From NCBI GenBank assembly GCA_029863605.1, contig JAOTVB010000007.1, positions 51,080-115,079 on the forward strand: 64,000 nt of DNA, in the 5' to 3' direction. Position numbers and translations under genes: made by a program. This stretch comes from Myxococcales bacterium. GTDB lineage: Bacteria > Myxococcota_A > Polyangia > Polyangiales > Houyiibacteriaceae. Position 1 is the stretch's first letter. Every line of letters begins with the position of its first letter. Below the pieces are notes generated by a model. It was not told the origin of the DNA and ran no database searches. It worked only from the letters and a program-made list of their open reading frames with translations. Shown piece by piece: positions 2,175 through 23,303 of the stretch.

Positions 2175-3548
2175 GTGGACGAAGCACATGCTCAGCTCGA
2201 CGCGATCGGGATTGCCTGGCGGCTGGGCGCGACGCTGTTCTTCGTTATGCTGAACGGCTTCTTCGTCGCAACCGAATTCGCTCTGGTGAAGGTGCGCATG
2301 ACCCGCATCGATACCTTGGCCAAGGGCGGAAGCCGTCGCGCAGGGGCCGTCAAGCACATCCTCAGCCATCTCGATCGCTATCTGTCTGCCTGTCAACTAG
2401 GCATTACCTTCGCTAGCCTGATCCTCGGCGCATTGGGCGAGCCAGCCGTCTCGGTGTTGATCATTGCGGGATTGCGCGCGCTCGGGATCGAGGTCGCGCC
2501 TGAGGCGACCTGGGTGCCTATCGTATCCATCGGTTTGGCCTTCACTGTGATCACGGTGCTGCACATGACGTTGGGTGAGCAGGCACCGAAGATGTGGGCG
2601 CTTCGTCGGGCGGAAACGACGGCGCTCCACACCGCGTTAACTCTCAGAGTGTTCACCTGGATCTTCGGGCCGTTCATCGCCGGGATCAACAGCATTTCCA
2701 ACTGGATGCTGCGGCTGGTGGGCCTCTCGGTGCATCATGGCGACGAAGTCACGCACACTTCCGAGGAGATCCGATCGATGCTCGCGCTTTCATGGGCAGC
2801 GGGACACATCTCGAAGCTCGAGCACGAGGTCACGGAGAACGTCTTTCGAATCATGGAGCTCGAGGTGCGGCACATCGTGCTTCCACGGGTTGATGTCGAA
2901 TACCTATCTCTCGGCCGACCGGACGAAGAGAACATGGCGGTCATTCGGGACAGTGGGCACAGCCGCCTACCACTGTGCGACATCAGCTTGGACACGATCA
3001 TCGGATTCGTCCACACGAAGGATGTGCTGCAGCAGGTTCTCGAGGGTAAGCCGCTCGACCTCAAGGCGTTGGCCAGAGACGCGGTCTTCGTACCCGATAC
3101 GATGTCGCTTTCCGACTTTCTCATCGAGCTGCAATCGGCCAAACAGCACTGCGCGGCAGTCGTCGATGAACGCGGTACCGTGATCGGCTTGGCATTCCGC
3201 GAAGACGCGCTCGAGGAAATCGTGGGACCGCTGGGTGACGAGTTCGACGAACACGAACGAGAGTTCGAAGAGGTGGAAGAAGGCGTCTACGAGGTCATGG
3301 GGCGCATGTCGGTCCCGGAAGCTTGCGGTAGGCTGGATTTCGAGCTGGGCGGCGAAGAGTACGAAGACGAGGACACGATCGGCGGCCATGTGACGGCGCG
3401 CTTGGGACGGTTGGCCAAGCCCGGTGATCAGGTGCTGGTCGGCCCTTACTTGGCGACCGTGCTGGAGGTGGGCCGGCGTCGTGTCCGACGGGTTCGCCTC
3501 GAGCGCGCGCCAAACGATGAAGAAGTCGGTGCCATCGTTGCACCTTGA
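2175..3548 (+). CDS. Hemolysin-family CNNM/CBS/CorC protein (Mg/Co transport-related)
   Basis: LNGFFVATEFALVK, CQLGITFASL and GEQAPK (CNNM/DUF21); CBS pair (HSRLPL, VDERG); C-terminal CorC/HlyC domain (DTIGG). Confidence 0.92.
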   Translation: MDEAHAQLDAIGIAWRLGATLFFVMLNGFFVATEFALVKVRMTRIDTLAKGGSRRAGAVKHILSHLDRYLSACQLGITFASLILGALGEPAVSVLIIAGLRALGIEVAPEATWVPIVSIGLAFTVITVLHMTLGEQAPKMWALRRAETTALHTALTLRVFTWIFGPFIAGINSISNWMLRLVGLSVHHGDEVTHTSEEIRSMLALSWAAGHISKLEHEVTENVFRIMELEVRHIVLPRVDVEYLSLGRPDEENMAVIRDSGHSRLPLCDISLDTIIGFVHTKDVLQQVLEGKPLDLKALARDAVFVPDTMSLSDFLIELQSAKQHCAAVVDERGTVIGLAFREDALEEIVGPLGDEFDEHEREFEEVEEGVYEVMGRMSVPEACGRLDFELGGEEYEDEDTIGGHVTARLGRLAKPGDQVLVGPYLATVLEVGRRRVRRVRLERAPNDEEVGAIVAP

Positions 3549-3592: not shown

Positions 3593-5812
3593 CTACTCGC
3601 TCATCACGCGGCCAAAGAGCGCTTTGACGGTGTCGTGGTGCTTGAGGACCATGACCGGCTTGTCTGATAGACGCGCGATCTCTTCCGGGATGCTGCCGAA
3701 CAAGATACGCTTCGAAAAGCTCTGTCGAGCGGCGCCAAGGATGACACCGTCGTAATTCTTTAGCTCCTCGACGATCCCATCGGTCACCGAGCGGTTCTGG
3801 ATGATTTTGATGTCCACTTGCTCGAATTTCGTCGCCTCGACAATCCTACCTCGGGCCGCCTGAAGGCGTTCGTTTTCCGATTGGATCAGCTCCTCTTGAG
3901 CGTCCACGGGGACGACGGTGCACAGGGTCACGGTGCCATTCTGCGAACCGGCAATATTTGCCGCATAGTTTTCGGCTTGCTGCGCATGAACGCCGCCATG
4001 AGTCGGCAGCAGCAAACGTTTTGGCAAGGCCGCGTCGGTGAGCTTGACGAGCATGATGTCGGTCCGCGCATTGAGGACGACGGCATCCGTGATCTCCCCG
4101 AGAATGTGACGCGCCGTCGATGTGTGCCCTTTCCACCCGAGTACCATCAGATCACATTCGCGTTCTCGGCTGGTCTCGAGGATGGCACGGGCCGGGTTGT
4201 GACCAATGCGCACGAGTGACGTCATCGGCACGTCGTGTTTGCGTCCTCGTCGACGCGCCGCATCCAACATAGCGCGCTCGCGCTCGACGTAGAAGCTCTC
4301 GAGGCGCGGCGGAAGCTGCTCGGGCACCACTACGACGCGGAGAGCGATGAGGTGCCCGTTGCGGGCATGAGCGATTGCGGCGGCGATGTCGATCAATGAA
4401 TCGACGTTTGCAGGATGCGCAAGGGGGACCAAGATGCGGAAGTCCGCCTCTGCTGCGTCGGTTTGCTCGAGAGCGACCCGCGATGGCCGCCCAGGCAACG
4501 CTTCGACCTCGAGCTGCGCCCCCTTCCAGCCCATGAACCCCAAGAACCCGACCACCAACGCTCCGAGCGCCAAGAGAACCGGAGCAAGCTGCGGAACCTG
4601 AGAGAGCAGGTACAGATTCGCAAGAATGCCGAGCGCAGGAAGCGCGGGGACGAAGGGCACCCGGAAAGGGCGTTTGAGGTTTGGAAACTTGCGGCGGTGC
4701 TGAATGAGAGCCGCATTCACCAAGATGAGCGCGATCAGAAGCACGCAATCCGCAAAGTGGGCGAGCGCCTCGAGCGGAAGCAACATGGCAAACGTTGCGA
4801 TCCCCGCCCCAACGAGCAGCAGAGCGACGATGGGCGTGCGCGTGCGCGGGTTGATCGACCCGAACTCTTTGGGCAGATGGCCAAGCCTGCTCATCGAAAG
4901 CGCAACACGGGAACCCGCCAAGATGGACGCGTTCGATGCGGAGACCATGGAAAACAGCGCACCGCCCACGATCACCATCCCGCCGATGGATCCCAAGAAC
5001 TGTTGGGCAGCCGTGCCCATCGCCGATTCGGTGTATTCGCTGAGGTTTGCCGCGACGACGACGAGCACGACCAAGGTGTAGAGGACAGTCACGAAGCCCA
5101 TCGAGATGAAAATCGCGCGCGGAATCGTAGTGACTGGATTCCTTACTTCGCCCGCGGACGCAGCGATCGCCGAGAACCCGAAGAAAGTGATGAACACCAT
5201 TGCGGCCGTGCTTCCGATTTTCAGAAAATCCGTACTGAAGCGCTCGACGATCACGGTTGGATCGACGTGGAGCAGACCGCCGCCGACGAACCAGAGGAGC
5301 AGCACCACTTTGCCGATCGTGACGACCACCTGAAAGTTGCCACTCTCTTTGGTGCCTTTGATGTTGAGGAGGATCAGTACCCCGACGGTCATGAGACCAG
5401 GAAGAGCCTTTACACGCGAGTGCAGGATGAACTCGTTGAAGTAACTGGAAAAGCTCGCGATGTAGAAGCCGCATGACGCCGTGTAGCCGAGGAGCAAGCA
5501 CCACCCGACCATGTAGGCAATGAGCGCGGGAAAGGTGCGGCGCGCATATAGATATCCTTCGCCGGATTGTGGGTAGAGTGCGCTGAACTCGCAGTAGGTG
5601 AGCGCGGTGAAGGTGGCGACCAACGCGGCCAGCAAGAATGACGCGATGGCGGCCGAACCGACGTAACCCACGGCCAAGCCGGAGAGCGTGAAGATGCCGG
5701 CGGCGATCATCGTGCCGATGCCGATTGCGAGCACCGAGACCAGACCGAGGTCGCGGGTGAGCTCAGTTTCGATTACATGGTCGTTGGTTCCGACGTCAGG
5801 AAGCTCGCTCAT
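3593..5812 (-). CDS. APC-family amino acid permease fused to tandem universal stress protein (USP) domains
   Basis: IGIGTMIAAGIF and FFGFSAIA..AGEVRNP with ~12 TM; C-terminal ILVPLAHP, DLMVLGW and FGSIPEEIA USP motifs. Start moved to ATG 5812 (MSELPD) to avoid overlapping the divergent gene. Confidence 0.9.
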   Translation of the reverse strand: MSELPDVGTNDHVIETELTRDLGLVSVLAIGIGTMIAAGIFTLSGLAVGYVGSAAIASFLLAALVATFTALTYCEFSALYPQSGEGYLYARRTFPALIAYMVGWCLLLGYTASCGFYIASFSSYFNEFILHSRVKALPGLMTVGVLILLNIKGTKESGNFQVVVTIGKVVLLLWFVGGGLLHVDPTVIVERFSTDFLKIGSTAAMVFITFFGFSAIAASAGEVRNPVTTIPRAIFISMGFVTVLYTLVVLVVVAANLSEYTESAMGTAAQQFLGSIGGMVIVGGALFSMVSASNASILAGSRVALSMSRLGHLPKEFGSINPRTRTPIVALLLVGAGIATFAMLLPLEALAHFADCVLLIALILVNAALIQHRRKFPNLKRPFRVPFVPALPALGILANLYLLSQVPQLAPVLLALGALVVGFLGFMGWKGAQLEVEALPGRPSRVALEQTDAAEADFRILVPLAHPANVDSLIDIAAAIAHARNGHLIALRVVVVPEQLPPRLESFYVERERAMLDAARRRGRKHDVPMTSLVRIGHNPARAILETSRERECDLMVLGWKGHTSTARHILGEITDAVVLNARTDIMLVKLTDAALPKRLLLPTHGGVHAQQAENYAANIAGSQNGTVTLCTVVPVDAQEELIQSENERLQAARGRIVEATKFEQVDIKIIQNRSVTDGIVEELKNYDGVILGAARQSFSKRILFGSIPEEIARLSDKPVMVLKHHDTVKALFGRVMSE

Positions 5813-5967
5813 GCTCGCTGGAGGTTCGCACAGCAACACCCCTTTTTGGAATAGGGACTGCAGGATGATGGCAGCGCGCTTTTCATGTGCAGCGACCGAT
5901 CTGTTTGCGAAGGCCCCCAAAATCGGGGACAACAAGAGCCTGGCCTGCAGAAGACAGGGGAGGATAT

Positions 5968-7851
5968 ATGGCAGAGAGTCTAGAACGCGTGTGGACGCAG
6001 CTACTGGGTGAGGGCCAATTCGTAGCGGTTGCATCGCATAGTGGCCATCAGCTTCGCCCTGAGGTACGTGATCTGATGAAGCTCCCCGACGAAGAGCGTC
6101 TCCGCGAGGAGGATCCGTTTACGGAGGAGTGGGCCGTGATCGCGCCGACTCGATTCGTGGCGCGGCGCTCGCGCTTCGAAGTCGACCTCAATCGGGCACG
6201 GCACGAAGCGGTTTATCTTGGGCCGGACAATGCGTGGGGCCTCGATCTTTGGAAAGAGCCTCTCAGCCAGGATATCGTTGATCGGTCCCTTGCGGAGTAC
6301 GACGCGTATTACGCAGCACTGCGTGAGGTGCTTGTCGGCCTCGAGCGAGAATACGGCGCCTTCGTGGTCTTCGACCTACACAGCTACAACCATCGCCGAG
6401 AAGGCCCGGATGGCCCCGCAGCAGATCCGCAGAAGAACCCTGAGGTCAATGTTGGCACAGGCACGATGAAGCGTGACCGCTGGGCCCGCGTCGTCGACAC
6501 CTTCATCGACACGCTCTCCAATTACGACTTTCAAGGCCGACGGCTCGACGTCCGAGAGAATGTGAAGTTCGTTGGCCGGCAGCTGCCACAGTGGGTCCAC
6601 GAGAATTTCCCGGAGAGCGGGTGTGTTCTAGCGATCGAAGTGAAGAAATTCTTCATGGATGAGTGGTCCGGCGAGGTCAACCGTGAGGCGATGGACGAGG
6701 TCAAGAGGGCCCTAGCATCTACGGTTGAGCCAGTGCTGGCGGCCCTCAAGGCAACGAAGAAGGGGAAACGAAAGGCGAAGAAGGGCACCAGTGCGCTCCA
6801 CAGGGCCATGCGGATCGGTTTCGTCGTCAACGACGTGATGACCGAGGAGGCGGGATACACGACCACTCGTCTCGCCATGCGTGCCCGACAGATGGGCCAC
6901 GAGGTATCGGTCATGAGCGTCGGCGATCTGGCCTATGATAGCGACGAAAAGGTTCGCGCCAAGGGAAGGTCGGTACCAAAGCACATCTACAAAAATGGCG
7001 CCTCCTTTCTGAAGGACCTTCAAGGAAAGGCCGCCATCGAAGAGCGCGTGACCGTGGACGACCTGGACATTCTCTTGCTTCGTAACGACCCGTCGACCGA
7101 TGCGGTCGCGCGACCCTGGGCAGCCAACATCGGCATTCAGTTTGGCCGTGTAGCCATGCGTCATGGCGTGGTCGTTCTGAATGATCCCGAGGGGCTGGCC
7201 AAGGCGACGAGCAAGATGTACTTCCAGACCTTTCCCGCAGAGGTGCGTCCGATGACGGTCATTTCTCGAGACCGAGCCGACATCAAAGCCTTTGCAAAAG
7301 AGCGCGGAACGATCGTGCTCAAGCCTCTTCAAGGTTCAGGTGGACAAGGCGTCTTTCTCGTGCGCCCGGACGACGTACCCAACTTGAATCAAATGATCGA
7401 TTCTGTCTCGCGTGACGGTTTCATGATCGCCCAGGAGTACCTGCCAGACGCTGCACATGGCGATACCAGGTTGTTCGTCATGAATGGTGAGGCCCTTCGT
7501 CATCGAGGAAAGTACGCCGCTTTCCGTCGCATTCGTCAGGGTGGCGATATGCGGTCGAACATTCACGCTGGTGGGCGCTTGGCGCGCGCCGAGATCGGTC
7601 CCGAAGCGCTCGAGCTCGTCGAGATCGTGAGGCCAAAGCTGATGCGTGACGGAATGTTCCTGGTCGGCCTCGACATCGTTGGGAACAAGCTGATGGAGAT
7701 CAATGTCTTCAGCCCGGGTGGGCTCGGCAGCGCGCAGAAGTTCGAGGGCGTCAACTTCTCCGAAGCCGTCATGCGGGCCCTCGAGCGCAAGACCCGAGCG
7801 ATGGACTACTACCGACGCCAGTTCGACAACGTCGCAATGGCGATCATTTAA
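5968..7851 (+). CDS. gshB: Fusion of N-formylglutamate amidohydrolase-like domain and glutathione synthetase (GshB)-like ATP-grasp ligase
   Basis: N-terminal HSGH, REED, SRFEVDLNR, FDLHSYN and AIEVKK; Lys-rich linker; C-terminal LRNDP, VLKPLQGSGGQGV, QEYLP, RSNIHAGG and GLDIVGNKLMEINVFSPGG. RBS GGGGAGGA precedes ATG 5968. Substrate not established. Confidence 0.85.
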   Translation: MAESLERVWTQLLGEGQFVAVASHSGHQLRPEVRDLMKLPDEERLREEDPFTEEWAVIAPTRFVARRSRFEVDLNRARHEAVYLGPDNAWGLDLWKEPLSQDIVDRSLAEYDAYYAALREVLVGLEREYGAFVVFDLHSYNHRREGPDGPAADPQKNPEVNVGTGTMKRDRWARVVDTFIDTLSNYDFQGRRLDVRENVKFVGRQLPQWVHENFPESGCVLAIEVKKFFMDEWSGEVNREAMDEVKRALASTVEPVLAALKATKKGKRKAKKGTSALHRAMRIGFVVNDVMTEEAGYTTTRLAMRARQMGHEVSVMSVGDLAYDSDEKVRAKGRSVPKHIYKNGASFLKDLQGKAAIEERVTVDDLDILLLRNDPSTDAVARPWAANIGIQFGRVAMRHGVVVLNDPEGLAKATSKMYFQTFPAEVRPMTVISRDRADIKAFAKERGTIVLKPLQGSGGQGVFLVRPDDVPNLNQMIDSVSRDGFMIAQEYLPDAAHGDTRLFVMNGEALRHRGKYAAFRRIRQGGDMRSNIHAGGRLARAEIGPEALELVEIVRPKLMRDGMFLVGLDIVGNKLMEINVFSPGGLGSAQKFEGVNFSEAVMRALERKTRAMDYYRRQFDNVAMAII

Positions 7852-7855
7852 CGGC

Positions 7856-9838
7856 ATGGACCATAACGGATCGCGAGCGGCAAGCCCCAAGGGATCCGGC
7901 ACACGATCTGATCAAAAGGGCACGAGCTTGCCGACGAACGGCCTGACAACGACGACTGAAGCGATCGCTGACGCCATCCGACAACGGGTTGCGGAAGGCG
8001 CGCCAGTGCGGCGAAGGCTCCCCGGCCGCGGAAGGCTGCACGTCGACCGACCCCTTCCTTTCATCGCCGTCTATGTGGAGCCGGACGACCGATCAGACCC
8101 CGGCACCAACCAACTGGTGACCACCGAAGCTTCCTATCTCTACACCTCTGCAGCAAAAGGTGGCCGCAAGAGGGCCGCAACGCTGGTTCGTGTGCTGGCT
8201 GAGACGGTTCGTCCGAGCTTTGGCAACCAGTTCTTGATCGTCGCAGTATATTCTCGTCCGCCGGAGCATCCCCCAATCGTCGAAAGCTCGAAAGAGCATC
8301 CAGCTCCCGCGTTTCGATTGTTCAGCTCGGCGCCAGGCTACGACATCGACTCCATCATCGAGGTCCTAGAACGGCATCTAAGAGCGGTCGAAATCGGTGG
8401 ACGCCGCGCGGCCGTCGAAGTCGTTCAGAACACGGGCGAGTTTCCTCACCGAGATCGCCCACTTTGGAAGAATGCCGTATTGCGCGAGCTCGGTGGCGGA
8501 CAGATCACGATTGAAGTCGAGCCGATCTATCAAAAGGTCGGCGGGAACGACGTGTATCCGGCCGTCCTGAAGAGTCTCCGGCGACAACTCGGCCGGGCGC
8601 TCAAGCATGCGTTCTTTCACTTTGCCGAGCGCGACACGAGCCTTCACCCCAAAGACTTTCACTCTCTGGGACGCCGTGCAGTCGTCAAGGCAGTTTGGGA
8701 CGTCGACGCTCGACTCGATGAGGTCGCATCGGGCTTTGACCTGTTGCTCGAGGTCAATCCGATCAATACCGAGGCGGTGTGGAACGGTTTTCGCCGGAGC
8801 GGCTTCGAAAAGGTGCCCCCGTTTCGGTATCGCCCTCTTTCGATCGATCCCGTCCTAGCGAAGCGCAAGCTCTATTCGATTCCGCTGGAGAAAATTGAGG
8901 ACCCCACGATTTCCTTTTTGTTCAGCCAGAAGCAAGACGAGCTCGATCGACAACTGACGATGCTGCACGATCGTGGCACCCCGCGATTCTTGCTCGGAAG
9001 CATCCAGGTGTACGGGCGGGTTTCAAAGCAACTCTTGCGCTCCGCAGAAGAAATTCTCGAACAGATTTCGAGCACGACACGGACTCCGAGTGGGGGCGGC
9101 ACGATCCCGGTCGAGGAGTTCGCTGAGCGAGCTAGAAAAGAGATCGCTTACTACCGTCGTATCTGGGACGGCGTCGATGCAACCGTCGAGGTGATACGGG
9201 GCATGAGCTCGGGCCTGATGGTATCGAAAGGCCGCCTATTGATTCCTTCGCGGTCTAGGATTCCGGTGAACCGCGTCGACGCGCTGATTCAGCACGAGAT
9301 CGGAACACATTTGGTCACCTACTTCAATGGCAAGGCGCAGCGTTTCACCCAGCTCCGGAGCGGCTTCGCGGGGTACGAAGAGCTTCAAGAGGGAATCGCC
9401 GTGCTGGCCGAGTACCTCGCAGGTGGAATGACGCCTGCGAGGCTACGTACCCTCGCCGCACGCGTGGTTGGCGTTGACGCGGCGATCAAAGGGGCGTCGT
9501 TCGTCGATGTGTTTCGCCTGTTGTGTCGATACGGGTTTGCTCGACAGCAAGCGTTCAATGTCACAATCCGCATCTACCGCGGCGGCGGCCTCGTCAAAGA
9601 CTGCATCTACCTTCGAGGGCTCCTCACCGTCCTCGAGTATCTGCGCAACGGGGGTGAATTCGAGCCGCTCTTCGTCGGAAAGATCGCAGCCAAGCACATT
9701 CCGATCGTGCGCGAGCTCCAAAGCCGCAAAGTGCTCGAGGCGCCGAAGTTCTTGCCGCGCTTCGTCGGCAGGGAAGCGTGCCAAGAGCGTCTCCAACTGG
9801 TGCGCCAGGGGCTGAATGTATACGAGCTTCTCGATTAG
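7856..9838 (+). CDS. QEGLA-motif / DUF1704 metallopeptidase (flavohemoglobin expression-modulating family, MATCAP-like)
   Basis: QHEIGTH (HExxxH), LQEGIAVLAEY and RGGGLVKDCIYLRG; N-terminal LHVDRPLPF extension. ATG lies 4 nt after the upstream stop. Confidence 0.88.
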   Translation: MDHNGSRAASPKGSGTRSDQKGTSLPTNGLTTTTEAIADAIRQRVAEGAPVRRRLPGRGRLHVDRPLPFIAVYVEPDDRSDPGTNQLVTTEASYLYTSAAKGGRKRAATLVRVLAETVRPSFGNQFLIVAVYSRPPEHPPIVESSKEHPAPAFRLFSSAPGYDIDSIIEVLERHLRAVEIGGRRAAVEVVQNTGEFPHRDRPLWKNAVLRELGGGQITIEVEPIYQKVGGNDVYPAVLKSLRRQLGRALKHAFFHFAERDTSLHPKDFHSLGRRAVVKAVWDVDARLDEVASGFDLLLEVNPINTEAVWNGFRRSGFEKVPPFRYRPLSIDPVLAKRKLYSIPLEKIEDPTISFLFSQKQDELDRQLTMLHDRGTPRFLLGSIQVYGRVSKQLLRSAEEILEQISSTTRTPSGGGTIPVEEFAERARKEIAYYRRIWDGVDATVEVIRGMSSGLMVSKGRLLIPSRSRIPVNRVDALIQHEIGTHLVTYFNGKAQRFTQLRSGFAGYEELQEGIAVLAEYLAGGMTPARLRTLAARVVGVDAAIKGASFVDVFRLLCRYGFARQQAFNVTIRIYRGGGLVKDCIYLRGLLTVLEYLRNGGEFEPLFVGKIAAKHIPIVRELQSRKVLEAPKFLPRFVGREACQERLQLVRQGLNVYELLD

Positions 9839-10614
9839 AGCTTCGGTGGCGGGTGCAATCCTGCGGTCGTCACTGGCTTCTGCGATCGGCGCTTGATCGC
9901 GGGCGTATCGAACGATGCCCCAAGCATCACGGTGTGGTTGATGAGGTTCGTGCCCGCGGGGTCTAACCATTGCATTTGATAGCCTACCGAGACCTGAGTC
10001 CAGGGTCCGAACCGTCGGCTGAAGCCGCCATACAAGCGGTTCTCGTGGTACCCCTTGTCACCAACGACGGGGACTTCGTTGAAGTTGACGAAGAACTCGT
10101 TCTTCACGATGAAATCGATTCCGGCAACCAAGGGAACTGCCATCCCCAACAGAAATCGCCCTCGAACCGACACCGAGCTCAAATCGCTGAAGAAGCGTTG
10201 CTCGAGGCGAAACCGGGAGTCCAAGCGAAAATGCTCCCATGCATGACGATGCGAGAGCTGCTCCCAGATTCGGTGCTCCGACCGTGAACGCGGCTGAAAG
10301 AAGATCAGCGCGTCGTACCCAAGGCCGACACTGAAGCCGTGCGGAATCGCTACTTCGAACCAGGGTCGCACCAGAAGAATCCGAAAGTTCGTAACGTTGT
10401 TGATGAACCTCGGCTCGGTGAGCAACCGGAAGGCATATCGATCTGCAAAGGGCACCCGAACAGCCGTCGTTATCCATACTGCGGGGCCCTGCTCAGTTGC
10501 CTCGGCCGCATTCGGAAGCGTCATTGTGCAAACGAAGGTAGCGACCAACAACGATAGCCTCGGCCGTCGCCGTCGAATGGCGTTGGAAGGCTTGCGTGCC
10601 ACGGGTACCTTCAC
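9835..10614 (-). CDS. DUF2490-family outer-membrane beta-barrel protein
   Basis: Signal peptide; EHRIWEQ, RFRLEQRF, NEFF and ENRLYGG amphipathic strands; GTGA overlap with the mscS stop. Confidence 0.8.
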   Translation of the reverse strand: MKVPVARKPSNAIRRRRPRLSLLVATFVCTMTLPNAAEATEQGPAVWITTAVRVPFADRYAFRLLTEPRFINNVTNFRILLVRPWFEVAIPHGFSVGLGYDALIFFQPRSRSEHRIWEQLSHRHAWEHFRLDSRFRLEQRFFSDLSSVSVRGRFLLGMAVPLVAGIDFIVKNEFFVNFNEVPVVGDKGYHENRLYGGFSRRFGPWTQVSVGYQMQWLDPAGTNLINHTVMLGASFDTPAIKRRSQKPVTTAGLHPPPKL

Positions 10615-11540
10615 GCCGGTAGCGGCTCTGAACCGCTGCCCGCGGCTATCGTGCGGTGAAGGATAGCTGGGGGGCCGATGTGATAGTCCTCAAACGCATG
10701 CATCACCCTGAGGTGCACGTCGGTCTCGAAAGCGTTTTCGTATTTCGTATCGAGCACGTAAGCCTTGAGTCGAAGCCGCACTGCGATGTAGTTATCCTGC
10801 ATGACTTGGCTCACCAACACGACCACGGGCTTAGGCAGATGTACATAGCGGCTGGTTAGCCCGGCTTCGGTGACGATATCGCGTGCCTTCATGACATCTT
10901 GATCGACTCCAACATAGAAGTCCATGACGACTTGCATGTCGAGGGCGCCGTAGTTTCCGCACGATGTGATGTCGGTCAGAAACCTGTTGTTGGGGATCGT
11001 CACGGTGTTGTCGCTCAACGTTTGAAGTCGCACGGAACGCAGCCCAATTGCGGTGATGTCCCCGTATTCTCCTCCGAAAGCGACCCGGTCTCCAACCTGG
11101 AAAGGTTGATCGATCATGATCATGACGCCCGCGATGAAGGAAGCGACGAGATCGCGAACGGCGAACCCGATGGCGACAGCTGCGGTGCCGCCGAGTAGAG
11201 CAAGAACTTTGTTGTCGATTCGAATGCTCAGCGCGAGGACCGCTGCAATGGTGATGATGTAAACGAAGAACTGTACGATCGTTCCGATTTTCTGAAAAAG
11301 CATCCGGCGGGTCGTAAACTGATCGCCGAGATTCTCGATGAAGTTGTTGAAGAACCGGAGCGTGATCCACACTCCGAGGATCACGAAAAGCGAGGTGACC
11401 ACGCCGCCCCAGCGAATCGATTGCTTAATATACGAAACCACTTCTTCGTCGGTCGTCGCATCCTGTGCGAGAGCCAGCGCGGGCACGAGACACTGGCCGA
11501 GTATGGCCGCGATCAGGATGAGCGTTTTTCGTGTTTTCAT
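10611..11540 (-). CDS. Small-conductance mechanosensitive channel (MscS family)
   Basis: AIGFAVRDLVASFIAG, PFQVGDRV, GLRSVRLQT and VTIPN; signal-like N-terminus. Start ATG 11540. Confidence 0.92.
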   Translation of the reverse strand: MKTRKTLILIAAILGQCLVPALALAQDATTDEEVVSYIKQSIRWGGVVTSLFVILGVWITLRFFNNFIENLGDQFTTRRMLFQKIGTIVQFFVYIITIAAVLALSIRIDNKVLALLGGTAAVAIGFAVRDLVASFIAGVMIMIDQPFQVGDRVAFGGEYGDITAIGLRSVRLQTLSDNTVTIPNNRFLTDITSCGNYGALDMQVVMDFYVGVDQDVMKARDIVTEAGLTSRYVHLPKPVVVLVSQVMQDNYIAVRLRLKAYVLDTKYENAFETDVHLRVMHAFEDYHIGPPAILHRTIAAGSGSEPLPA

Positions 11541-11550
11541 AATGGAAACC

Positions 11551-14500
11551 TCAGAGCAACAGCAGATGCTTCCTGCGGAGGATACTCGTGACCGCTCGAT
11601 ACCATTGAATGTCGATCTCGAAAAGCTGGTCTCGCTCTCGGATGTAGCCATGGACTTGGGCCGCACGCAGGGCGTCCGCTACTTCCGCCGGGCTCAGATC
11701 CGTACAGGTGACCACATCCTCTTCGACGGCGCGCTCGAGCTGAACGACCGTGCGAAGAACGAAGTAAAATGTGCTTGGAAGCTCATCGAGTTGGCCGGCC
11801 GTTGGTCCCGCAAACAGTCGCACGTGCACGGTCTCATCCGGGGGTCGGCGATACAGAGACTCTCTCCAGAAGTGGAGCGCCACCTCCGGATTGCCATTGG
11901 AGTAGTCCCAAAGAATACGGTGGAAGTCTCGCTTCGTGCGCTCTTCATCGGAAACTGGAGAAGTCTGCACTTGCCGCGGGACGACGAGCCGTTCGAAATT
12001 GGGAACGATCCCCGCAGCCGCTGTGCGCTGCTCGACGAGGGTCGCAATTTGCGTTTCTTCCCAAGGGGCGAGCTCGATCACTTGGTCGAACGCGGCGCGG
12101 TCTCCGCGGGCTCGGCGCAGGTACTGCCAGGCTGGCATGCCGATGGCGATCAACCACGAGGTCTGCGGGCTGACGAGGCGTGTGAGCTCGATGAGATGAT
12201 CGATGTCCTCCAATCCACCGATGAGCGGCCGAACGAGCCTCTGAGCATCATCTACGCAGATGACGCTCGGGGCGCGTTCGCGGAGGGTTGCGATGATCTC
12301 TTCCTCGGTCGCAGACTCGGGGAGCTCGAGCGCACGTGAAAAATCCCGCAACAGCGTCGAGAACCCTCCCGGTTGGCACTGTACGGAACAAAGGCTACCC
12401 GGCTCCAAGTCACTCGTGACGCGGTTGAGAAATGTGGTTTTTCCAAGCCCTCGTTCACCGACCACCGCGACGATCGCGTGATTGTCGGACCGAACCAGCG
12501 CACGCATCGCGTGAACCCGATCGGACATATACCCGGTCACCAGCTGGGGAGTCTCCGTTGAACGCGGGGCGAGGGCGTCATACGCTTCCGGCGGGATTGG
12601 CTCCGTGCCATATTCTGCGGGCGCTGCGGTCGTACTCTTCTCGACACCACGCCGAAACAGGTAGGCGAAAAACCGACGCAACGGCGCCAACTCGCTCATC
12701 CGGTGCACGAAAAAACCCGCTACCCCTTCGCTGAGAAGGTAGCCTCCGCCGATCGCTGCGGCGGGGTACTTCAGAAACCCTCCCTCGCGGGCGGCCACCC
12801 ACCGCAAGACTGCGGACGACTCGCGACCTTTCGCCCGTTCGAAGATCGTATCCTTCCACCAAAACACCAATACCAGAAACACTGGAATCGCCAGAAACCA
12901 GAACGTGCTGATAACCCAAGCGTAGATCGCGCCCTTGCCGACGATGGCCACGGTGAGTGACAAGATCAGCCCGACGGCGACGACGCTCACCCCGACCATC
13001 CGCAACGAGCGAAAGCGCAGCTTGGCGGAAGACTCGCTCGAGGACCCCTGACGGCTCGCGGTGGCATCGATCAACTCGACCACAAACGCACCAGCCAAGA
13101 GCCACAGAATGATTATCTCGAGATACTCGGTCGCTGCAATTCCACCTGCCCTGCCGATCAAGGCGATCAACACCGCGAAAAGCGCGAACCATTCTAGAGG
13201 CTTTCGTACTCGGCGCAGGTACCAGGCGAAAGTCGAGACTCCCCGAGTCAGTTGGGTCTGCGGCCGTTTTTGCAGCCAACTCCTTCGCATCTGTTCGAGC
13301 GTGGAGTCGGCCCTCTTTCGCCACCACTGAAAGAACACCAGTAGTAGAGCGAGCTGAAACAGGCCCGCGAAAGCCGGCCCTGGCGCCGATCGTAGCTGAT
13401 GATACTGGCGAGCCGCTTCGCGCGGTAGGGACAGCAGGTGGAAGCGAGACTCGAGGATGATTTGTTTGACCTCCCTCTTGACCTGTGCGACGCCCTCAGG
13501 CCCAAAACCCTCGACGCTGTCCCGCCGTGACTCGCTGAGCATCCTAAACAGGCGCAGGCGAGACTGGTTCATGAGGACCACGGCATCGCGAAGCCCGGCC
13601 GCGCGATCCCATCTGAGCTGAGCCTCTGCAACTTGCAGCTTGAGCCCCGCGCTCGTGAGCTCGGTTCGAAGCTCGCGGATCACGCCGTCGTCAATGTCGC
13701 CCGGAATTGGTTCCGGATCAGCCTCAGGCGGCATCGGAGCTCTGCTTGGCTCCCCCATCACGGCATCGAGGGCGAGACTCAGGTTACGTCGCGCTTCGGT
13801 GAGATCTTTGGTGAGCATTCTGTAGAGACCGTCGGCTTCATTGGCTCTCTCCGTCCTCGAAGGCAGCCCCTCTTCTAGCTCTCGCACTCGACGGTTCCAC
13901 GCGAGAGCCGATTCCATCGCGGCCTCGACCTCCGCGCGCCGACTTGCAAGCTCGGCTGCGAAACTTGCCTGAGCTTCTTTCAAGCGCAGGAGCCTCGCGC
14001 GACGGTCGGCGATGAGTCGAAGCGCTTCGGTCTGGGCGAGCTGCGAATCGACGAGCGCCTCCTCGCGTTGCTCCGCGGCTTTCTTGGCCGCGTCCTGGGC
14101 CGCCGCGATCTGCTCTACCAATGCTTGCGAAGTGGTTTCGTCACGCTCTACGTGGTCCGCAAAGAGTGAGCGACGGGCGTCCTCATCGAGCGCTAGGAAC
14201 TGACGCCACAACGAATCGCGCCGCCACCTTGCTGCGTCGAGTTGGGCGTCGAGGTCGCCTTCCCGAGCCCCGCCGCGGGCCTCTTCGACCGTATCTGGGG
14301 CCAAGAAGGACTTGCGGCGCCTCGAGCTCAACGCGAAATCTCCGAGGTCGGCGAAATCGATCTCGAGCAGTGGCCGTGGGTCTATCGACGGGTCGAGCTC
14401 TCCTTGCAGAAACGCCTCGAGCTGGTCGGCTTGCGACTGAAGCTCAATGAGCATCTCGGTCTTGACCCGTTTCGAAGCTGCCTCGACGGTCGCCTCCCGG

Positions 14501-14973: not shown

Positions 14974-16154
14974 TCCATCCGGCGGGCAGTATACGGCCCG
15001 CTTGGCTTTCGTCGAAATAGTTCTGCGATCCGAATCCAGGTCGGACTGACGAGCAAGGTCAAGGCAATGACCGCGACCGTAGTCTGATAGGCAAAGTCCT
15101 CGATGAGCCCTGTCTGTCGGCCCACTGCGGCCAGCACAAAACTAAACTCGCCGATCTGGGCGAGCAGTGCGCCTCCGCGAAGGCTGTTGGGCCAACTCCG
15201 ACCCAAGAGTCGAAGGATGACTCCGTTGACCAGCGTGTTGGTCACCAAGACTGCAAGAAGGAGGGCAAACAGAACGGGAAAACGGTTCCAAACAAATCTC
15301 GGATCGATCATCATCCCGATGGAAACGAAAAAGACTGCCAAGAAAAAGACCTGAAACGGATACAGGGCGTCGTGGATCCACTCGGTCTCACGGGCTGCCC
15401 CGACGACGACGCCTCCTACGAACGCACCCAAAGCGACCGATAGGCCCGCAATACCCGTCAGAAACGCAAGTCCAAATGCCAACGCAAAAGCGGCCAAGAC
15501 CTGCAGCTCTCGGTCGCCGCGTAACCATTTCGCAAGCGGGATGTGAATGCTGTCCCGAGAAGCAATGAAGCCGAGCAGAACAATGACGCAGACCCCAGCA
15601 ACCAGTTGGATGCCGAGCGTCATCGGCGAGGGCGAGCTTCCTGCCAAGAACCCGATGGTCATCAGCATCGGGATGATCGCTATGTCTTGTGCAAGCAGAA
15701 TCCCAACCACATCTCGACCAACGGGCCCATTTAGCTCGCCGCGGTCGTGGAGTAGCTTGAGGACGACAGCGGTGCTGCTGAGACTAATTACGAAGCCGAG
15801 CAGAACGATGCGGCCCACCGGCCAACTCATCCACCAGCCGATGGCCGCGACGAACCCTACGCTTGCCGCGATCTGCATGAGGGTTCCAAGGACCGGGATG
15901 CGCCATTGCTTCTTGAGCTCCGGCAAGGAGAGCTCCATGCCAGCAAAAAAGAGCAAGAGCACCACGCCGACTTCGCCCAACCGCGCGATTGTGGTGGTGT
16001 CGGTGACCAGGCCGAACCCACGCGGTCCTAGCAAGACACCCGTAATGAGGTATGCCACCAAAGACGGCTGCTTGAATCGCTGCAAGAGGATGCTTGCGAT
16101 CAACACGAAGAACGCGACCCCGACGAGCTGGGGCATCAATGGGTCCATATGCAT
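14970..16154 (-). CDS. Cation:proton antiporter, CPA2 (KefB/YbaL-like), without KTN domain
   Basis: GVVLLLFFAGMEL, SLSSTAVV, LLAQD, ALGAFVGG, FFVSIG and QIGEFSFV. The stop overlaps the NTPase ATG. Confidence 0.92.
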   Translation of the reverse strand: MHMDPLMPQLVGVAFFVLIASILLQRFKQPSLVAYLITGVLLGPRGFGLVTDTTTIARLGEVGVVLLLFFAGMELSLPELKKQWRIPVLGTLMQIAASVGFVAAIGWWMSWPVGRIVLLGFVISLSSTAVVLKLLHDRGELNGPVGRDVVGILLAQDIAIIPMLMTIGFLAGSSPSPMTLGIQLVAGVCVIVLLGFIASRDSIHIPLAKWLRGDRELQVLAAFALAFGLAFLTGIAGLSVALGAFVGGVVVGAARETEWIHDALYPFQVFFLAVFFVSIGMMIDPRFVWNRFPVLFALLLAVLVTNTLVNGVILRLLGRSWPNSLRGGALLAQIGEFSFVLAAVGRQTGLIEDFAYQTTVAVIALTLLVSPTWIRIAELFRRKPSGPYTARRME

Positions 16155-16190
16155 GGAGCGGTGCGTCCTATATACTCCAGTGCCCTTCGG

Positions 16191-17306
16191 ATGAAACGAT
16201 TCACGACAAAGAAGCTGTGCAGGATCGGCTCCGCGTTGGGGGCGGCTCTCCTTTTGCGGGCAGGCGCGGCCTACTCCCAAGAGGGTGGCAAAGTAGAGGA
16301 GTTGGCTGCGGCCATCGAGAATACGGGCGATAGGATCGAAGTCGTCGAAAGCAAGCTCAACCAGCTCGGAGATCGCGCGCTGGAGCTGCTGCCATTGCTT
16401 GGAGTGGCGCTGGTCACGGTCGCCTTTTTTTGGATCCTTGCGCGCCTCCTGACCAAAGGAGATTGGCTGTTTCGTTGGATCGACAACCGGTTCCTTCGCG
16501 ACATGGTGCGCCAGCTCACCCGTGTCGTCTTGATCGGAACCGGCTTGCTGATCGCACTCGAGCTTCTCGATGCGACAGCCCTCGTAGGGGCTGCCCTAGG
16601 AGCAGCGGGCGTCGTCGGTGTCGCCGTCGGCTTCGCCTTTCGCGATATCATGGAGAACTATCTCGCAGGTCTGCTGCTCAGCATGAGACATCCCTTCGAG
16701 CCCAACGATCTCGTCTCGATCGACGGGGACGAGGGCAAGGTGATTCGATTGACGTCCCGGGCAACTCTACTTCTCACGCTTGCGGGGAACCATCTGCGCA
16801 TCCCCAACGCGAAAGTTTTCAAGGCGGTGCTTCTCAACTACACCCGAAATCCACTTCGACGGCTCGACTTCGCGGTGAGTATTGGAGTCAACGAAGACGT
16901 AGCGACCGCGCAAAAGCTTGGGGTTGACGTGCTGTCGTCCATGGAAGCGATCATCGACGACCCGCCCCCGCTCGCCCTGATCGAGCGTTTGGGAGATTCC
17001 AGCGTGCCGATTCGTTTCTTCGCCTGGGTCGATCAACGACAAACCGACTTCTTGAAGGCGCAAAGCGAAGCGATCCGATTCGTAAAAATGGCCTTTGACG
17101 AGGCCAAGATCGAAATGCCGGAGCCGATCTACCGTGTATTCATGAGGAGCGACGCGGAGAGCCCGGCACAAGACGTGATCCGTCCGTCAGCCGAGAGTCT
17201 CGAGCCGGGAGACACCAGTGCCGATGCACGTCTCGACGCACAGGTCGAGTCCGAGCGTGCGGCCGAGGGCCCGGACCTCCTCGACGAAGAAGCCCCCCAA
17301 GAGTGA
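16191..17306 (+). CDS. MscS-family mechanosensitive channel
   Basis: AVGFAFRDIMENYLAG, PFEPND, RIPN and NYTRNPLRRLDF; N-terminal signal peptide. Confidence 0.9.
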   Translation: MKRFTTKKLCRIGSALGAALLLRAGAAYSQEGGKVEELAAAIENTGDRIEVVESKLNQLGDRALELLPLLGVALVTVAFFWILARLLTKGDWLFRWIDNRFLRDMVRQLTRVVLIGTGLLIALELLDATALVGAALGAAGVVGVAVGFAFRDIMENYLAGLLLSMRHPFEPNDLVSIDGDEGKVIRLTSRATLLLTLAGNHLRIPNAKVFKAVLLNYTRNPLRRLDFAVSIGVNEDVATAQKLGVDVLSSMEAIIDDPPPLALIERLGDSSVPIRFFAWVDQRQTDFLKAQSEAIRFVKMAFDEAKIEMPEPIYRVFMRSDAESPAQDVIRPSAESLEPGDTSADARLDAQVESERAAEGPDLLDEEAPQE

Positions 17307-17396: not shown

Positions 17397-18509
17397 ATAG
17401 CCAAGAAGGCACAGCGAAGGCGAAAGCGCGCGGCTCTGCGAAAGCGGAGACCCCAGACGCTCGGGCTGCCTCCCGGAACCATCATCGCCGTCCCCGGTCA
17501 GCCGCCTCCGGTCATTCGTGTCATCACTTATGACGCGGATCGCGTCGATGAGCATTCGGTGGACCACGTTTCGGAGCTGGAATTACTTCGTGACGACAGT
17601 GCCAAGGTCACTTGGGTCAATATCGACGGCCACGGCGACCGAGAGACTTTTTCGCAAATGGGTGAGCTTTTCGGCCTGCATGCACTCGCGTTGGAAGACG
17701 TGATGAACCTTCACCAAAGGCCGAAATTCGAGGACTACGGCGAGACCGACTTCGTCGTGCTGCGCATGCCGTCCATGACTCCGCATCTCGACCTGGAGCA
17801 AGTAAGCATGTTCGTCGGCGAGAGCTTCCTGATCACCATCCAAGAAAGGCCGGGCGATTGCTTCGATGCATTGCGCGATCGAATAAGGAAGAACAAGGGC
17901 CAAGTTCGTCGACGTGGCAGCGCCTATCTCGCTTACTCGGTGCTCGACGCAATCGTCGAGACGTTCTACCCCGTGATCGAGCGCTACGGCGACCAGCTAG
18001 AGGAGCTCGAAACCCGAGTGCTTGCAAACGCGACCGAAAACGTCGTCCCGGAGATTCACGCGATTCGTCATGACTTGCGGATGTTGAGGCGGTCCATCGT
18101 CCCAACCCGCGAGGTCCTGAGCGCCATGGCTCGTGCAGACGCCGGGGACCCACAGGACAATACCCACATCTTCCTTCGCGACTGCCACGACCATACAGTG
18201 CAGCTGCTCGAGGCGCTCGACACGAATCGCGAGCTAGCCTCGAGTCTGATGGACCTTCACCTCTCGAACGTGAGTATGCGGATGAACGAGGTCATGAAGG
18301 TCCTGACCATCATCGCAACGATCTTCATCCCGCTTGGCTTTCTTGCTGGCCTTTACGGAATGAACTTCGACGGGCATGTTTCGGCCTGGAACATGCCGGA
18401 GCTCCGGTGGCGCTATGGATATCCGTTCGCCCTCGGCATCATGGGGCTCACGGCAATCGGGCTCGTGTTTTTCTTTCGGTCGAAAGGATGGCTTGGCAAG
18501 GGTTCTTGA
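17397..18509 (+). CDS. corA: Magnesium/cobalt transporter CorA
   Basis: WVNIDG, LHALALED, QRPK, MNEVMKVLT, YGMNF and MPELRWRYGY. The frame extends upstream of GTG 17559 through GLPPGT to an ATA preceded by AAGGAGG. Confidence 0.92.
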   Translation: MAKKAQRRRKRAALRKRRPQTLGLPPGTIIAVPGQPPPVIRVITYDADRVDEHSVDHVSELELLRDDSAKVTWVNIDGHGDRETFSQMGELFGLHALALEDVMNLHQRPKFEDYGETDFVVLRMPSMTPHLDLEQVSMFVGESFLITIQERPGDCFDALRDRIRKNKGQVRRRGSAYLAYSVLDAIVETFYPVIERYGDQLEELETRVLANATENVVPEIHAIRHDLRMLRRSIVPTREVLSAMARADAGDPQDNTHIFLRDCHDHTVQLLEALDTNRELASSLMDLHLSNVSMRMNEVMKVLTIIATIFIPLGFLAGLYGMNFDGHVSAWNMPELRWRYGYPFALGIMGLTAIGLVFFFRSKGWLGKGS

Positions 18510-18518
18510 TGGCAACCC

Positions 18519-19472
18519 CTATGGCAATCGGCTGCCAGCGTAGGGGAGACCATCGAGGTAGTCGCGGAGCTCCTGCGTTCGATGCGTCCGAGGCAACCGG
18601 ATGGTGAGCCGCACCCACGTTGCGGACGCTCGCAAGACTAGAGCCACTTTTTCGGACCACGGCACGACGACGCGGCCAACCATTGGATTGCTCTGGTGGC
18701 GGCGCCGCAGTCGACGACCGATGCCTCGGTACAACCGGCTTGCGACGAGGATTGCCCACCGGGCGCGCGACGACAAAAACCGCATCCCCTCATCGCCGCT
18801 CCGGTAGTAATGCTCCGCCATCTCGAGAAGGTCGCCTACGACCAAGCTGACCGCCTGCTGATCCGCTTTTCCTCGCACGAGATCTTCAGGGGCAACGCCG
18901 TACATGCGGAGCCGTTCGGCGGGAAGGTATACCCTCGACGCCTTGGCGTCCTCTACCACGTCGCGGGCGATGTTCGTCAATTGCATCGCGATACCGAGGT
19001 CGATCGCGTGACGCCATGCTCGGGGGTCGCGGACTCCAAGGACGCAGCACATCATCAAACCCACGGTCCCCGCGGCGCGGTAACAGTAACGCACCAAGTC
19101 TCGGTCGGACTCGAGTCGAACGACGCCCAGGTCCGACGCCATCCCCGCAAGCAGCTCTTGGACGACGCGGAAGTCGATGCCGCACTCGAGACAAAGCTCG
19201 CGAAACCAGGAAAACCTATCGGGCCAGAGCCCCCTGCCGGCCGGCTCTGCCGCGAGCGCTGCTTGAAGCTTAGAGAGGTCTTGCCGCGCGTCCGGCGTTA
19301 TCCACTCCGCATCTGCGAGGTCGTCGACCGCCCGGCAAAACGCGTACAAAGTCGCGACCCTTCGGCGTTGGGCGCGGTTCAGAAAGACCGATGCCCACCG
19401 AAACGAACGCGCTCGAACAGCCAGCACCTGCCAATGCGCAACTTGGCGTGCCTGCTCCTCCCTGGTGATCAT
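18519..19472 (-). CDS. crtB: Phytoene synthase
   Basis: LYAFCRAVDDLAD, YCYRAAGTVG, LGIAMQLTNIARDVVED and RVYLP. Confidence 0.93.
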   Translation of the reverse strand: MITREEQARQVAHWQVLAVRARSFRWASVFLNRAQRRRVATLYAFCRAVDDLADAEWITPDARQDLSKLQAALAAEPAGRGLWPDRFSWFRELCLECGIDFRVVQELLAGMASDLGVVRLESDRDLVRYCYRAAGTVGLMMCCVLGVRDPRAWRHAIDLGIAMQLTNIARDVVEDAKASRVYLPAERLRMYGVAPEDLVRGKADQQAVSLVVGDLLEMAEHYYRSGDEGMRFLSSRARWAILVASRLYRGIGRRLRRRHQSNPMVGRVVVPWSEKVALVLRASATWVRLTIRLPRTHRTQELRDYLDGLPYAGSRLP

Positions 19473-23261: not shown

Positions 23262-23303
23262 CGCTGAGTTGACGCCCACCGGTTATGCAACCACAGACGA
23301 GAA

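Follow-up and report, generated by a model that had tools for sequence, protein, structure and literature searches.

A conserved bacterial module combining a GshB-like ligase, a MATCAP-type metallopeptidase and intact and degenerate N-formylglutamate amidohydrolase domains

The DNA considered here, referred to as the window, is a stretch of 64,000 nucleotides from a Myxococcales bacterium (GenBank assembly GCA_029863605.1, contig JAOTVB010000007.1, positions 51,080 to 115,079). Between positions 5968 and 9838 it carries two adjacent genes encoding an N-formylglutamate amidohydrolase-type enzyme (FGase), a GshB-like ATP-grasp ligase and a MATCAP-type metallopeptidase, the last preceded by a degenerate FGase-like domain (pseudo-FGase). 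Handles beginning with L and G denote loci and genomes, respectively; the source genome, G000, is 100% complete by marker genes. We are highly confident that these genes constitute one functional module distinct from the glutathione synthetase gene, gshB, of the same genome. The features of the locus are as follows.

5968..7851, plus strand: gene 1, encoding, in 627 residues, an FGase-type amidohydrolase fused to a GshB-like ATP-grasp ligase (open reading frame (ORF), ribosome-binding site, Pfam, NCBIfam)
6019..6645, plus strand: FGase domain (PF05013), residues 18-226 (Pfam, 78.2 bits, cut-off 28.9)
6742..6807, plus strand: Lys-rich linker between the two enzymes, residues ~259-280 (translation; falls between the Pfam domain ends)
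6808..7848, plus strand: GshB-like ATP-grasp ligase of PRK12458 type, residues 281-627 (NF009110, 455.3 bits)
7856..9838, plus strand: gene 2, encoding the 660-residue pseudoFGase-MATCAP protein, its ATG 4 nt past the end of gene 1 (Pfam, NCBIfam)
7985..8656, plus strand: degenerate FGase-like domain, probably non-catalytic, residues ~44-267 (AlphaFold2 model, fold match, hhalign)
8705..9793, plus strand: MATCAP/QEGLA metallopeptidase domain, residues 284-646 (TIGR02421 at 284-646; PF08014 at 312-642)
9293..9310, plus strand: HEIGTH, the HExxxH zinc and catalytic motif, residues 480-485 (alignment to human MATCAP)
9386..9400, plus strand: QEGIA, whose (Q/E)EG motif contains the putative third metal ligand, residues 511-515 (alignment to human MATCAP)

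Gene 1 has GGGAGGA ahead of its ATG at 5968 and ends with TAA at 7849-7851. An initial annotation, made from the letters of the window alone, had described an N-formylglutamate amidohydrolase-like domain and a GshB-like ATP-grasp in one polypeptide, an architecture that Pfam confirms. The conserved His, Asp and Glu residues of the FGase domain are all intact, and H24, E47, D49, D136, H138 and E224 are invariant in an alignment of 44 module FGases; we take H24, D49, H138 and E224 to be metal ligands. A profile of these FGases gave no match to PDB sequences at E ≤0.01. The ligase half passes the NCBIfam model NF009110 (PRK12458) with 455.3 bits against a cut-off of 408, and consists of GSH-S_N (residues 281-410, 37.7 bits) followed by GSH-S_ATP (residues 416-590, 165.8 bits). 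Among the best 120 protein-database matches, 45 full-length clusters have the fused form, at 58-94% identity; the others are mostly 348-residue stand-alone ligases, 70-74% identical. No fused form longer than 1155 residues appeared in the search, which is weak evidence.

The second gene, which the initial annotation had described as encoding a DUF1704/QEGLA protein with HEIGTH and QEGIA and placed 4 nt after gene 1, is recognised as such by its ORF, by the MATCAP model PF08014 (321.8 bits, gathering cut-off 27) and, marginally, by TIGR02421 (QEGLA; 339.6 bits, cut-off 338.65). One database copy begins 24 codons further in (636 residues), which makes the start of gene 2 provisional. Its homologues, among the best 120 listed, are mostly of ~640 residues and 46-100% identical. 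The profile of the family matches human MATCAP (7z5g) at E 1.7e-9 over ~210 residues, with HEIGTH opposite HEIGTH and QEGIA, which has Ile for Leu relative to QEGLA, opposite EEGLA. The EEG motif has been proposed to supply the third ligand in MATCAP enzymes, in the available text of that study (PMC10499314). Across 24 homologues of gene 2, the residues H480, E481, H485, Q511, E512 and G513 do not vary.

In the window copy, Pfam finds no domain in the ~300 N-terminal residues of gene 2, yet these are conserved in ~640-residue homologues from many phyla. A profile of this region retrieves 933 cluster representatives at E ≤0.001 (746 at E ≤1e-10), and its full-length matches are nearly all proteins of 600-660 residues that carry it N-terminally. 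Residues 31-312 were modelled with AlphaFold2 from 65 sequences, with a mean predicted local distance difference test score of 90.4. Among 48,161 PDB representatives its best fold match is an N-formylglutamate amidohydrolase (2q7s_B; Z 13.6, root-mean-square deviation 3.0, 178 residues aligned at 16% identity), followed by 2odf_A (Z 12.1) and M14 carboxypeptidases (Z 11-12). A Foldseek search of the PDB yielded only low template-modelling scores (0.3-0.4), to PNP and peptidase folds. Comparison of the profile with the module FGases by hhalign yields a probability of 94.5 and E 8e-8 over 181 columns; BLASTP of this region against the FGase of gene 1 found no match, and the kinship is visible by fold and profile comparison only. 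On the model and these alignments, the first ~270 residues of gene 2 are a second, divergent FGase paralogue. The DLHS histidine of true FGases aligns to Trp or Tyr in this domain, no histidine is invariant in the 65 sequences (no His column exceeds 78%), and the window copy has Ala at a column that is Glu in 97% of the family. Because the catalytic residues are lost, the domain is probably non-catalytic, a pseudo-enzyme. Prediction of a complex between the FGase and pseudo-FGase domains scored 0.00 in both of two runs, made without controls, a result that speaks neither for nor against binding.

Conservation of the module was followed from gene 2. A scan with one genome per species gave at least 597 confirmed relatives, the best 80 of which define 79 loci; these are the closest relatives, and the sample is hence biased toward the long form of the protein. 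The loci span more than 15 phyla, including Myxococcota, Planctomycetota, Chloroflexota, Acidobacteriota, Bacteroidota, Campylobacterota, Calditrichota, Gemmatimonadota and Gammaproteobacteria. Scoring by tblastn with the four domains of the window found the ligase in 75 of the 79 loci and all three activities (FGase, MATCAP and ligase) together in 69. The grouping of the three activities is far beyond chance, because 69 of 79 related loci hold them all. The commonest layout by far, with 57 loci, is FGase, pseudoFGase-MATCAP and ligase on a single strand; the order of the window (FGase, ligase, pseudoFGase-MATCAP) occurs in 4 loci, FGase lies last in 4, other orders account for 4, and 10 loci are without FGase and/or ligase. 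Among the incomplete loci, L015, L037 and L071 are truncated by the end of the contig at the place expected for the missing gene, and in L055 the contig stops just past the peptidase gene. Only the FGase is absent in L035, L081 and L088, and both FGase and ligase are absent in L029, L059 and L085, of which L059 is a second copy in a metagenome-assembled genome (MAG) whose other locus, L079, is complete.

The same association is seen from the ligase side. In a survey of 81 Myxococcota genomes the scores were bimodal, five exceeding the PRK12458 cut-off (456-495 bits) and all other matches reaching at most 295 bits. A long MATCAP gene adjoins the PRK12458 ligase in all five (the source genome and four others), and a congener without the ligase carries only a short, 419-residue MATCAP. 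The initial annotation had proposed a write/erase system of ligase and peptidase acting on a small peptide, an osmolyte or a protein C-terminus, a wide range within which the present data give no confident preference, with co-occurrence of the domains as a check. The functional link of the pair stands, being conserved across phyla from both gene sides, and its extent has to be revised from two proteins to three activities plus a pseudo-enzyme domain; the degenerate FGase domain of gene 2 had been missed, as had the origin of the fusion from a three-gene operon.

This origin can be followed within the clade of the window. The FGase-ligase fusion is present in L012 and L013, and L016 has the gene order of the window with FGase and ligase as two separate genes. 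In L014 (5049-6996), a close relative, the fusion gene is broken up into a pair of overlapping ORFs (of 514 and 229 residues), by a frameshift or an assembly error. Since the other best matches are mostly stand-alone ligases, the fusion is a lineage-specific rearrangement of the three-gene operon. A third architecture was met in Gammaproteobacteria, where MATCAP homologues occur in 23 of 151 sampled genomes and ~6 kb around each of 20 fetched loci was checked. Four of these (L135-L138) hold the full three-gene module. In L134 (6468-9468) a 342-residue ligase gene (NF009110, 459.8 bits; 28% identity to the ligase of the window) overlaps by 17 nt a gene for a 662-residue FGase-MATCAP fusion (TIGR02421, 396.7 bits), the FGase domain of which is found by Pfam (44.6 bits) and retains the DLHS histidine, hence looks active. 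A LysR regulator gene lies upstream. The genome in question (G201) additionally carries the three-gene type. The same three activities are thus united in three ways: as three genes, as an FGase-ligase fusion, and as a ligase with an FGase-MATCAP fusion.

The remaining 15 fetched gammaproteobacterial loci (L119-L133) have no ligase or FGase match within ~6 kb, and 14 of them (L119-L132) encode short MATCAP forms of 422-455 residues. The source genome has such a form as well, a stand-alone 415-residue paralogue (L009, 7655-8902, contig C39) adjoining a PIN-PhoH gene; it scores 172.5 bits on TIGR02421, well under the cut-off, and is unlinked to a ligase. These short unlinked forms are a separate subfamily and are left out of the module counts. 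Further genes of these kinds were noted at several loci. In L089 (10175-12217), from an Alteromonadaceae MAG, a 680-residue ORF with FGase-like and MATCAP matches follows pseudoFGase-MATCAP and ligase, giving two peptidase genes; L062 and L075 have a second MATCAP match past the ligase; and in the L070 genome two tandem GshB-like ligase genes lie beside the module (G356, C1, 1477500-1479581, Bythopirellula chromosome).

The closest solved relative of the ligase is E. coli GshB (1gsa), to which it aligns at E 2e-36, and 36 conserved positions, the catalytic set included, are common to module ligases and canonical GshB (among them K452, G456-G459, R501, R521, R529, N531, D569, E577 and N579). 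The deviations from GshB motifs pointed out by the initial annotation are present in this alignment: LRNDPS stands opposite LMRKDPP and EINVFSPGG opposite EINVTSPT. Five positions are group-specific relative to canonical GshB (N288 for D, G393 for L, Q420 for L, F581 for T and G584 for T), of which F581 and G584 flank the Mg-binding E577 and N579. Module ligases also have three short insertions relative to canonical GshB, and GSH-S_N is weak in the window protein (37.7 bits, against 116 in the GshB of the source genome). The ligase half reaches neither of the GshB equivalog cut-offs (TIGR01380, 197.7 against 299.05 bits; NF003573, 209.4 against 272), whereas the canonical GshB of the same genome, encoded elsewhere next to a gamma-glutamyltranspeptidase (GGT) gene, scores 316.7 on TIGR01380, above the cut-off, and 332.6 on NF003573.

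A phylogeny of the ATP-grasp domain against GshB had been suggested by the initial annotation. A quick maximum-likelihood tree (IQ-TREE) was computed from 100 rows, namely 74 module ligases, 25 canonical GshB (24 Myxococcota loci and that of the source genome) and a RimK-like outgroup; six loci without a ligase match longer than 250 residues were excluded. In this tree the module ligases and the canonical GshB each fall on one side of a branch (Shimodaira-Hasegawa-like approximate likelihood ratio test 92 and 89), on stems of 1.03 and 1.45 changes per site, respectively. Canonical gshB is widespread, with 166 of 201 Myxococcota genomes, whereas the module is patchy (5 of 81). A GCS2-type gshA candidate also lies elsewhere in the source genome, which has no E. 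coli-type gshA. On sequence grounds, and because it lies below the equivalog cut-offs and in a separate clade while a canonical gshB is present elsewhere, the ligase of the window is judged not to be the ordinary glutathione synthetase of this genome, as the initial annotation had held. It had also remarked on the lack of gshA and hut genes: none occurs in the Pfam-annotated part of the window, its initial 23 kb, and the whole genome is without urocanase. The FGase of gene 1 is therefore not HutG in a histidine-utilisation context.

The surroundings of the module in the first 23 kb are rich in ion-transport genes, as listed here.

28-1713: Na/Pi cotransporter gene (Pfam)
2175..3548, plus strand: CNNM/CorC-type Mg2+ transporter gene (Pfam CNNM, CBS, CorC_HlyC)
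3593-6034, minus strand: amino-acid permease (APC family) fused to two Usp (universal stress protein) domains, divergent from gene 1 (Pfam)
between the module and the MscS gene: DUF2490 gene (Pfam)
10611..11666, minus strand: MscS-type mechanosensitive channel gene (Pfam MS_channel_2nd)
11551-14973, minus strand: 1140-residue ORF with an AAA_22/NACHT-like NTPase region only at residues ~831-947, the rest without Pfam match
14970-16280: Na+/H+ exchanger gene (Pfam)
16149..17306, plus strand: second MscS-type channel gene (Pfam)
17559..18509, plus strand: CorA Mg2+ transporter gene (Pfam CorA, 229.8 bits), the sole CorA match in the source genome

The CNNM gene, both MscS genes and the only CorA gene of the genome all lie within 10 kb of the module. 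The longest frame of the permease-Usp gene overlaps the start of gene 1, and its true start is probably further in; the 3' end of the 1140-residue ORF overlaps the start of the MscS gene frame. Beyond these genes a carotenoid cluster extends over 18519-23279 on the minus strand (phytoene synthase, phytoene desaturase-type amine oxidase, polyprenyl synthetase and lycopene cyclase).

Neighbour families of the 79 loci were defined by ORF clustering, Pfam on cluster representatives and iterated local hidden Markov models, families in fewer than five loci not being named. MscS-type channels neighbour the module in 19 loci, MgtE in 13, CNNM/CorC in 9 and CorA in 7. At least one of MscS, MgtE, CNNM and CorA is found in 27 of the 79 loci, against a rough background of 9.0% of 16-kb stretches of the source genome that contain such a gene, a soft enrichment rather than a statistic. 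An MgtE gene even lies between the peptidase and ligase genes in L038, and a MscK-like gene does so in L070. Beyond the three module genes no neighbour family occurs in more than 19 of the 79 loci, and no further universal partner was found. Sigma-54 activator genes near the module in 18 of the 79 loci were dropped as uninformative, the source genome alone having 60. No sigma-54-like site with up to two mismatches was found on the plus strand at 5717-5968 and no sigma-70-like site upstream of gene 1; terminator-like matches were at shuffle level.

Expression of one variant is documented in Photobacterium damselae. In the available text of an RNA-seq study of this species, a 1029-nt (342-residue) gene for a 'glutathione synthase' overlaps by 17 nt a 1983-nt (660-residue) QEGLA gene, with a LysR-type gene and a DUF413 gene just upstream (PMC10308900). 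The two genes are up 38.4- and 27.5-fold, respectively, at 1% relative to 3% NaCl; RimK is up 52-fold under the same low salt, polyamine genes rise alongside, and the authors treat the ligase as GshB (PMC10308900). The geometry of this pair is that of L134, and by lengths, overlap and names it matches the two-gene variant.

The combination of domains, residues kept and lost, linkage and neighbourhood suggests a reading to which we give about an even chance of being correct: that the module makes and breaks a small acidic peptide, N-acyl or gamma-glutamyl, tied to ion or osmotic balance. The proposal is built by analogy. The substrate of GshB, gamma-Glu-Cys, is an N-acyl amino acid (an N-acyl cysteine), that of FGase is N-formyl-Glu, and N-acyl dipeptides and gamma-glutamyl peptides serve as bacterial osmolytes. 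We infer a small-molecule substrate and an order of reactions. The PRK12458 ligase, being glutathione synthetase-like, would phosphorylate an N-acylated amino acid or short acidic peptide (of gamma-glutamyl, formyl or acetyl type) at its free alpha-carboxylate and would then attach an amino acid there. The MATCAP-type HExxxH zinc carboxypeptidase would remove the added C-terminal residue, while the degenerate FGase domain in front of it, no longer able to cleave, would probably bind or sense the N-acyl-amino-acid 'head' of the substrate. Finally, the active FGase-type amidohydrolase would cleave the remaining N-acyl amino acid. In this scheme, the simplest that gives every part a role, the N-acyl amino acid would be the shared intermediate, extended by the ligase, regenerated by the carboxypeptidase and hydrolysed by the FGase. 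In the two-gene variant an active FGase in the place of the pseudo-FGase could receive the product directly. The level of the peptide may be tied to Mg2+ transport, mechanosensitive release and low salt.

Several points weigh against this proposal. All chemistry of the module is assigned by analogy, and the characterised relatives of MATCAP act on protein tails (tubulin) rather than small peptides, as far as the available text goes (PMC10499314). Ion-transport genes neighbour only 27 of the 79 loci, which are interrelated and represent the best 80 of at least 597 matches. The salinity data concern the two-gene variant, whose L134 example has a ligase only 28% identical to that of the window. 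With synthesis and breakdown encoded in one operon, the cycle would be futile in the absence of regulation, and neither a regulator nor a promoter signal was found. Moreover, in five genomes from other phyla that carry the module (two complete, two MAGs and a draft from an isolate) no GshB passes the cut-off; the module ligase is their best GshB-like gene, and there it could simply be the glutathione synthetase. None of the five has an E. coli-type gshA; four have a GCS2-family gene, and the fifth, the MAG G204, has no gshA of either type.

Of the alternatives, the one that survives best, although we regard it as unlikely, is that the module writes and erases a protein tail: the ligase would add one or more residues to an acidic protein C-terminus, in the manner of TTL/TTLL on tubulin and RimK on ribosomal protein S6, the MATCAP-type peptidase would trim them and the FGase would take off a group that blocks or branches the tail. 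Ribosomal proteins, or ion channels and transporters by their cytoplasmic tails, are possible targets. The residue-for-residue agreement of HEIGTH and (Q/E)EG with human MATCAP argues for such a role. MATCAP enzymes are described as removing C-terminal Tyr and Glu and shortening poly-Glu on tubulin, in opposition to the ATP-grasp ligases TTL/TTLL (PMC10499314), and the active site of TTL as closely resembling the one in glutathione synthase (PMC3563685), both in the available text. RimK is itself a weaker but significant match of the ligase (5zct, E 1.4e-9), and its low-salt rise parallels that of the P. damselae pair. However, no conserved candidate substrate gene accompanies the module in the 79 loci, and the ligase lies in the GshB branch with the GshB N-terminal domain retained. 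To our knowledge all characterised members of this branch act on small molecules, and we know of FGase-family enzymes only on small N-acyl amino acids. In a bolder version, which we consider rather improbable, the eukaryotic tubulin tyrosination/glutamylation cycle would have its prokaryotic counterpart, possibly even its evolutionary origin, in the module: the GshB/TTL-like ligase and the MATCAP peptidase would reversibly extend and shorten the acidic tail of a bacterial protein, for instance a ribosomal protein or an Mg2+ transporter or mechanosensitive channel with a cytoplasmic tail, in response to low salt or Mg2+ stress, the pseudo-FGase reading the tail.

It is likewise rather doubtful that the module is concerned with glutathione or a close analogue. 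Under that explanation the ligase would be a second (in other phyla the only) glutathione synthetase, the MATCAP-type peptidase would remove Gly from glutathione or its conjugates and the FGase would split gamma-Glu-Cys, the whole forming a cytoplasmic glutathione turnover cycle. The kinship with E. coli GshB, with all catalytic positions retained, is in its favour, as is the situation in the five genomes of other phyla, where none of the GshB-like genes reaches the canonical cut-off, that of the module scores best, and a GCS2-family gene is at hand in four. The NCBIfam name of TIGR02421 ties the family to flavohemoglobin expression, although the source of the name, 'flavohemoglobin expression-modulating' protein, could not be traced in a literature search. 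Against this stand the scores below the equivalog cut-offs, the separate clade on long stem branches, the group-specific changes beside E577/N579 and at N288, the weak N-terminal domain, the canonical gshB already present in the source genome, the absence of gshA from G204 and the patchiness of the module beside a common canonical gshB.

A conjugation of polyamines or other amines, in which the ligase joins a carboxylate to an amine and the FGase-type amidase reverses it, has a precedent in the bifunctional glutathionylspermidine synthetase/amidase, an amidase-ligase fusion, and would suit the Mg2+ transporter neighbours (polyamines can substitute for Mg2+) and the low-salt rise of polyamine genes with the module, but it leaves the carboxypeptidase without a role, no polyamine gene is among the recurrent neighbours of the 79 loci, and we hold it to be very improbable.

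The turnover of a small acidic peptide, which we favour, would if true make the module a new player in bacterial ion homeostasis; a protein-tail target would make it a bacterial forerunner of the tubulin code. The NCBIfam families PRK12458 and TIGR02421 are already known, as are amidoligase-peptidase systems as a kind. A literature search found no paper dealing with the MATCAP-ligase-FGase module of bacteria, with what it does or with the pseudo-FGase domain in it, and PF08014 matched only Plasmodium gene names. MATCAP has only recently been identified as a tubulin detyrosinase and deglutamylase, and no published function was found for its bacterial relatives. In loci from more than 15 phyla these relatives share an operon with an amidohydrolase and a GshB-like ligase, which provides a testable biochemical hypothesis for three families at once. 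The names currently attached to them, 'glutathione synthase', 'N-formylglutamate amidohydrolase' and 'flavohemoglobin expression-modulating protein', are misleading, and annotations that count the PRK12458 ligase as gshB overstate glutathione capacity.

Comparison with known systems places the module among several partial counterparts. With GshB (TIGR01380/NF003573; 1gsa) the ligase shares the fold, the order of GSH-S_N and GSH-S_ATP, and the Mg/ATP and loop residues; it differs in its sub-cut-off scores, separate clade, three short insertions and fusion to an amidohydrolase. HutG (PF05013; 2q7s) resembles the gene 1 domain in its invariant His, Asp and Glu, and the modelled N-terminus of gene 2 has the same predicted fold; in contrast, the source genome has no urocanase, and the second FGase copy is degenerate. 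A catalogue by Iyer, Aravind and colleagues (2009) reportedly includes amidoligase-peptidase systems with FGase, composed of a RLAN-RimK ATP-grasp, GCS2 and FGase. These likewise pair a ligase with an FGase-type hydrolase, whereas the module uses a different ligase family, has no GCS2 and has an additional MATCAP peptidase with a pseudo-FGase. The source genome holds one such system on another contig (L010, 3744-7173, contig C48), with genes for a RLAN plus RimK-like ATP-grasp (486 residues), a GCS2 carboxylate-amine ligase (537 residues) and an FGase (312 residues), followed by a CDP-alcohol phosphatidyltransferase gene. As regards the annotation families PRK12458 and TIGR02421, both window proteins and both L134 proteins are above the cut-offs; the window version is rearranged and fused, and no published function was found for either family.

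RimK/RimB, in which S6 glutamylation is combined with trimming, offers another ATP-grasp ligase with a product-trimming peptidase (PMC11957791), and RimK is a detectable relative of the module ligase. The latter, however, falls far short of the RimK cut-off (33.6 against 331 bits), the two peptidases differ in type, and no linkage to S6 was observed. Closer on the peptidase side are MATCAP/TMCP1-2 (KIAA0895L, KIAA0895), the eukaryotic tubulin carboxypeptidases/deglutamylases, which share PF08014 and align with gene 2 residue for residue at HExxxH and (Q/E)EG; like gene 2 they have as partner an ATP-grasp ligase whose active site is built like that of GshB, and the members assayed in the available text are all eukaryotic (PMC10499314, PMC3563685). 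Unlike them, gene 2 is bacterial, has no tubulin substrate, carries an N-terminal degenerate FGase domain and lies in an operon with ligase and amidohydrolase, and the similarity is distant. A parallel in logic is offered by the mammalian N-acetylaspartylglutamate cycle, with its ligase RIMKLA/B, the carboxypeptidase GCPII and aspartoacylase; a bacterial osmolyte, N-acetylglutaminylglutamine amide (NAGGN), is also known. Although the enzymes of that cycle are not orthologous to those of the module and the comparison is one of analogy, both would combine the same three activities: an ATP-grasp ligase acting on an N-acyl amino acid, a metallocarboxypeptidase undoing the ligation and an amidohydrolase for N-acyl amino acids.

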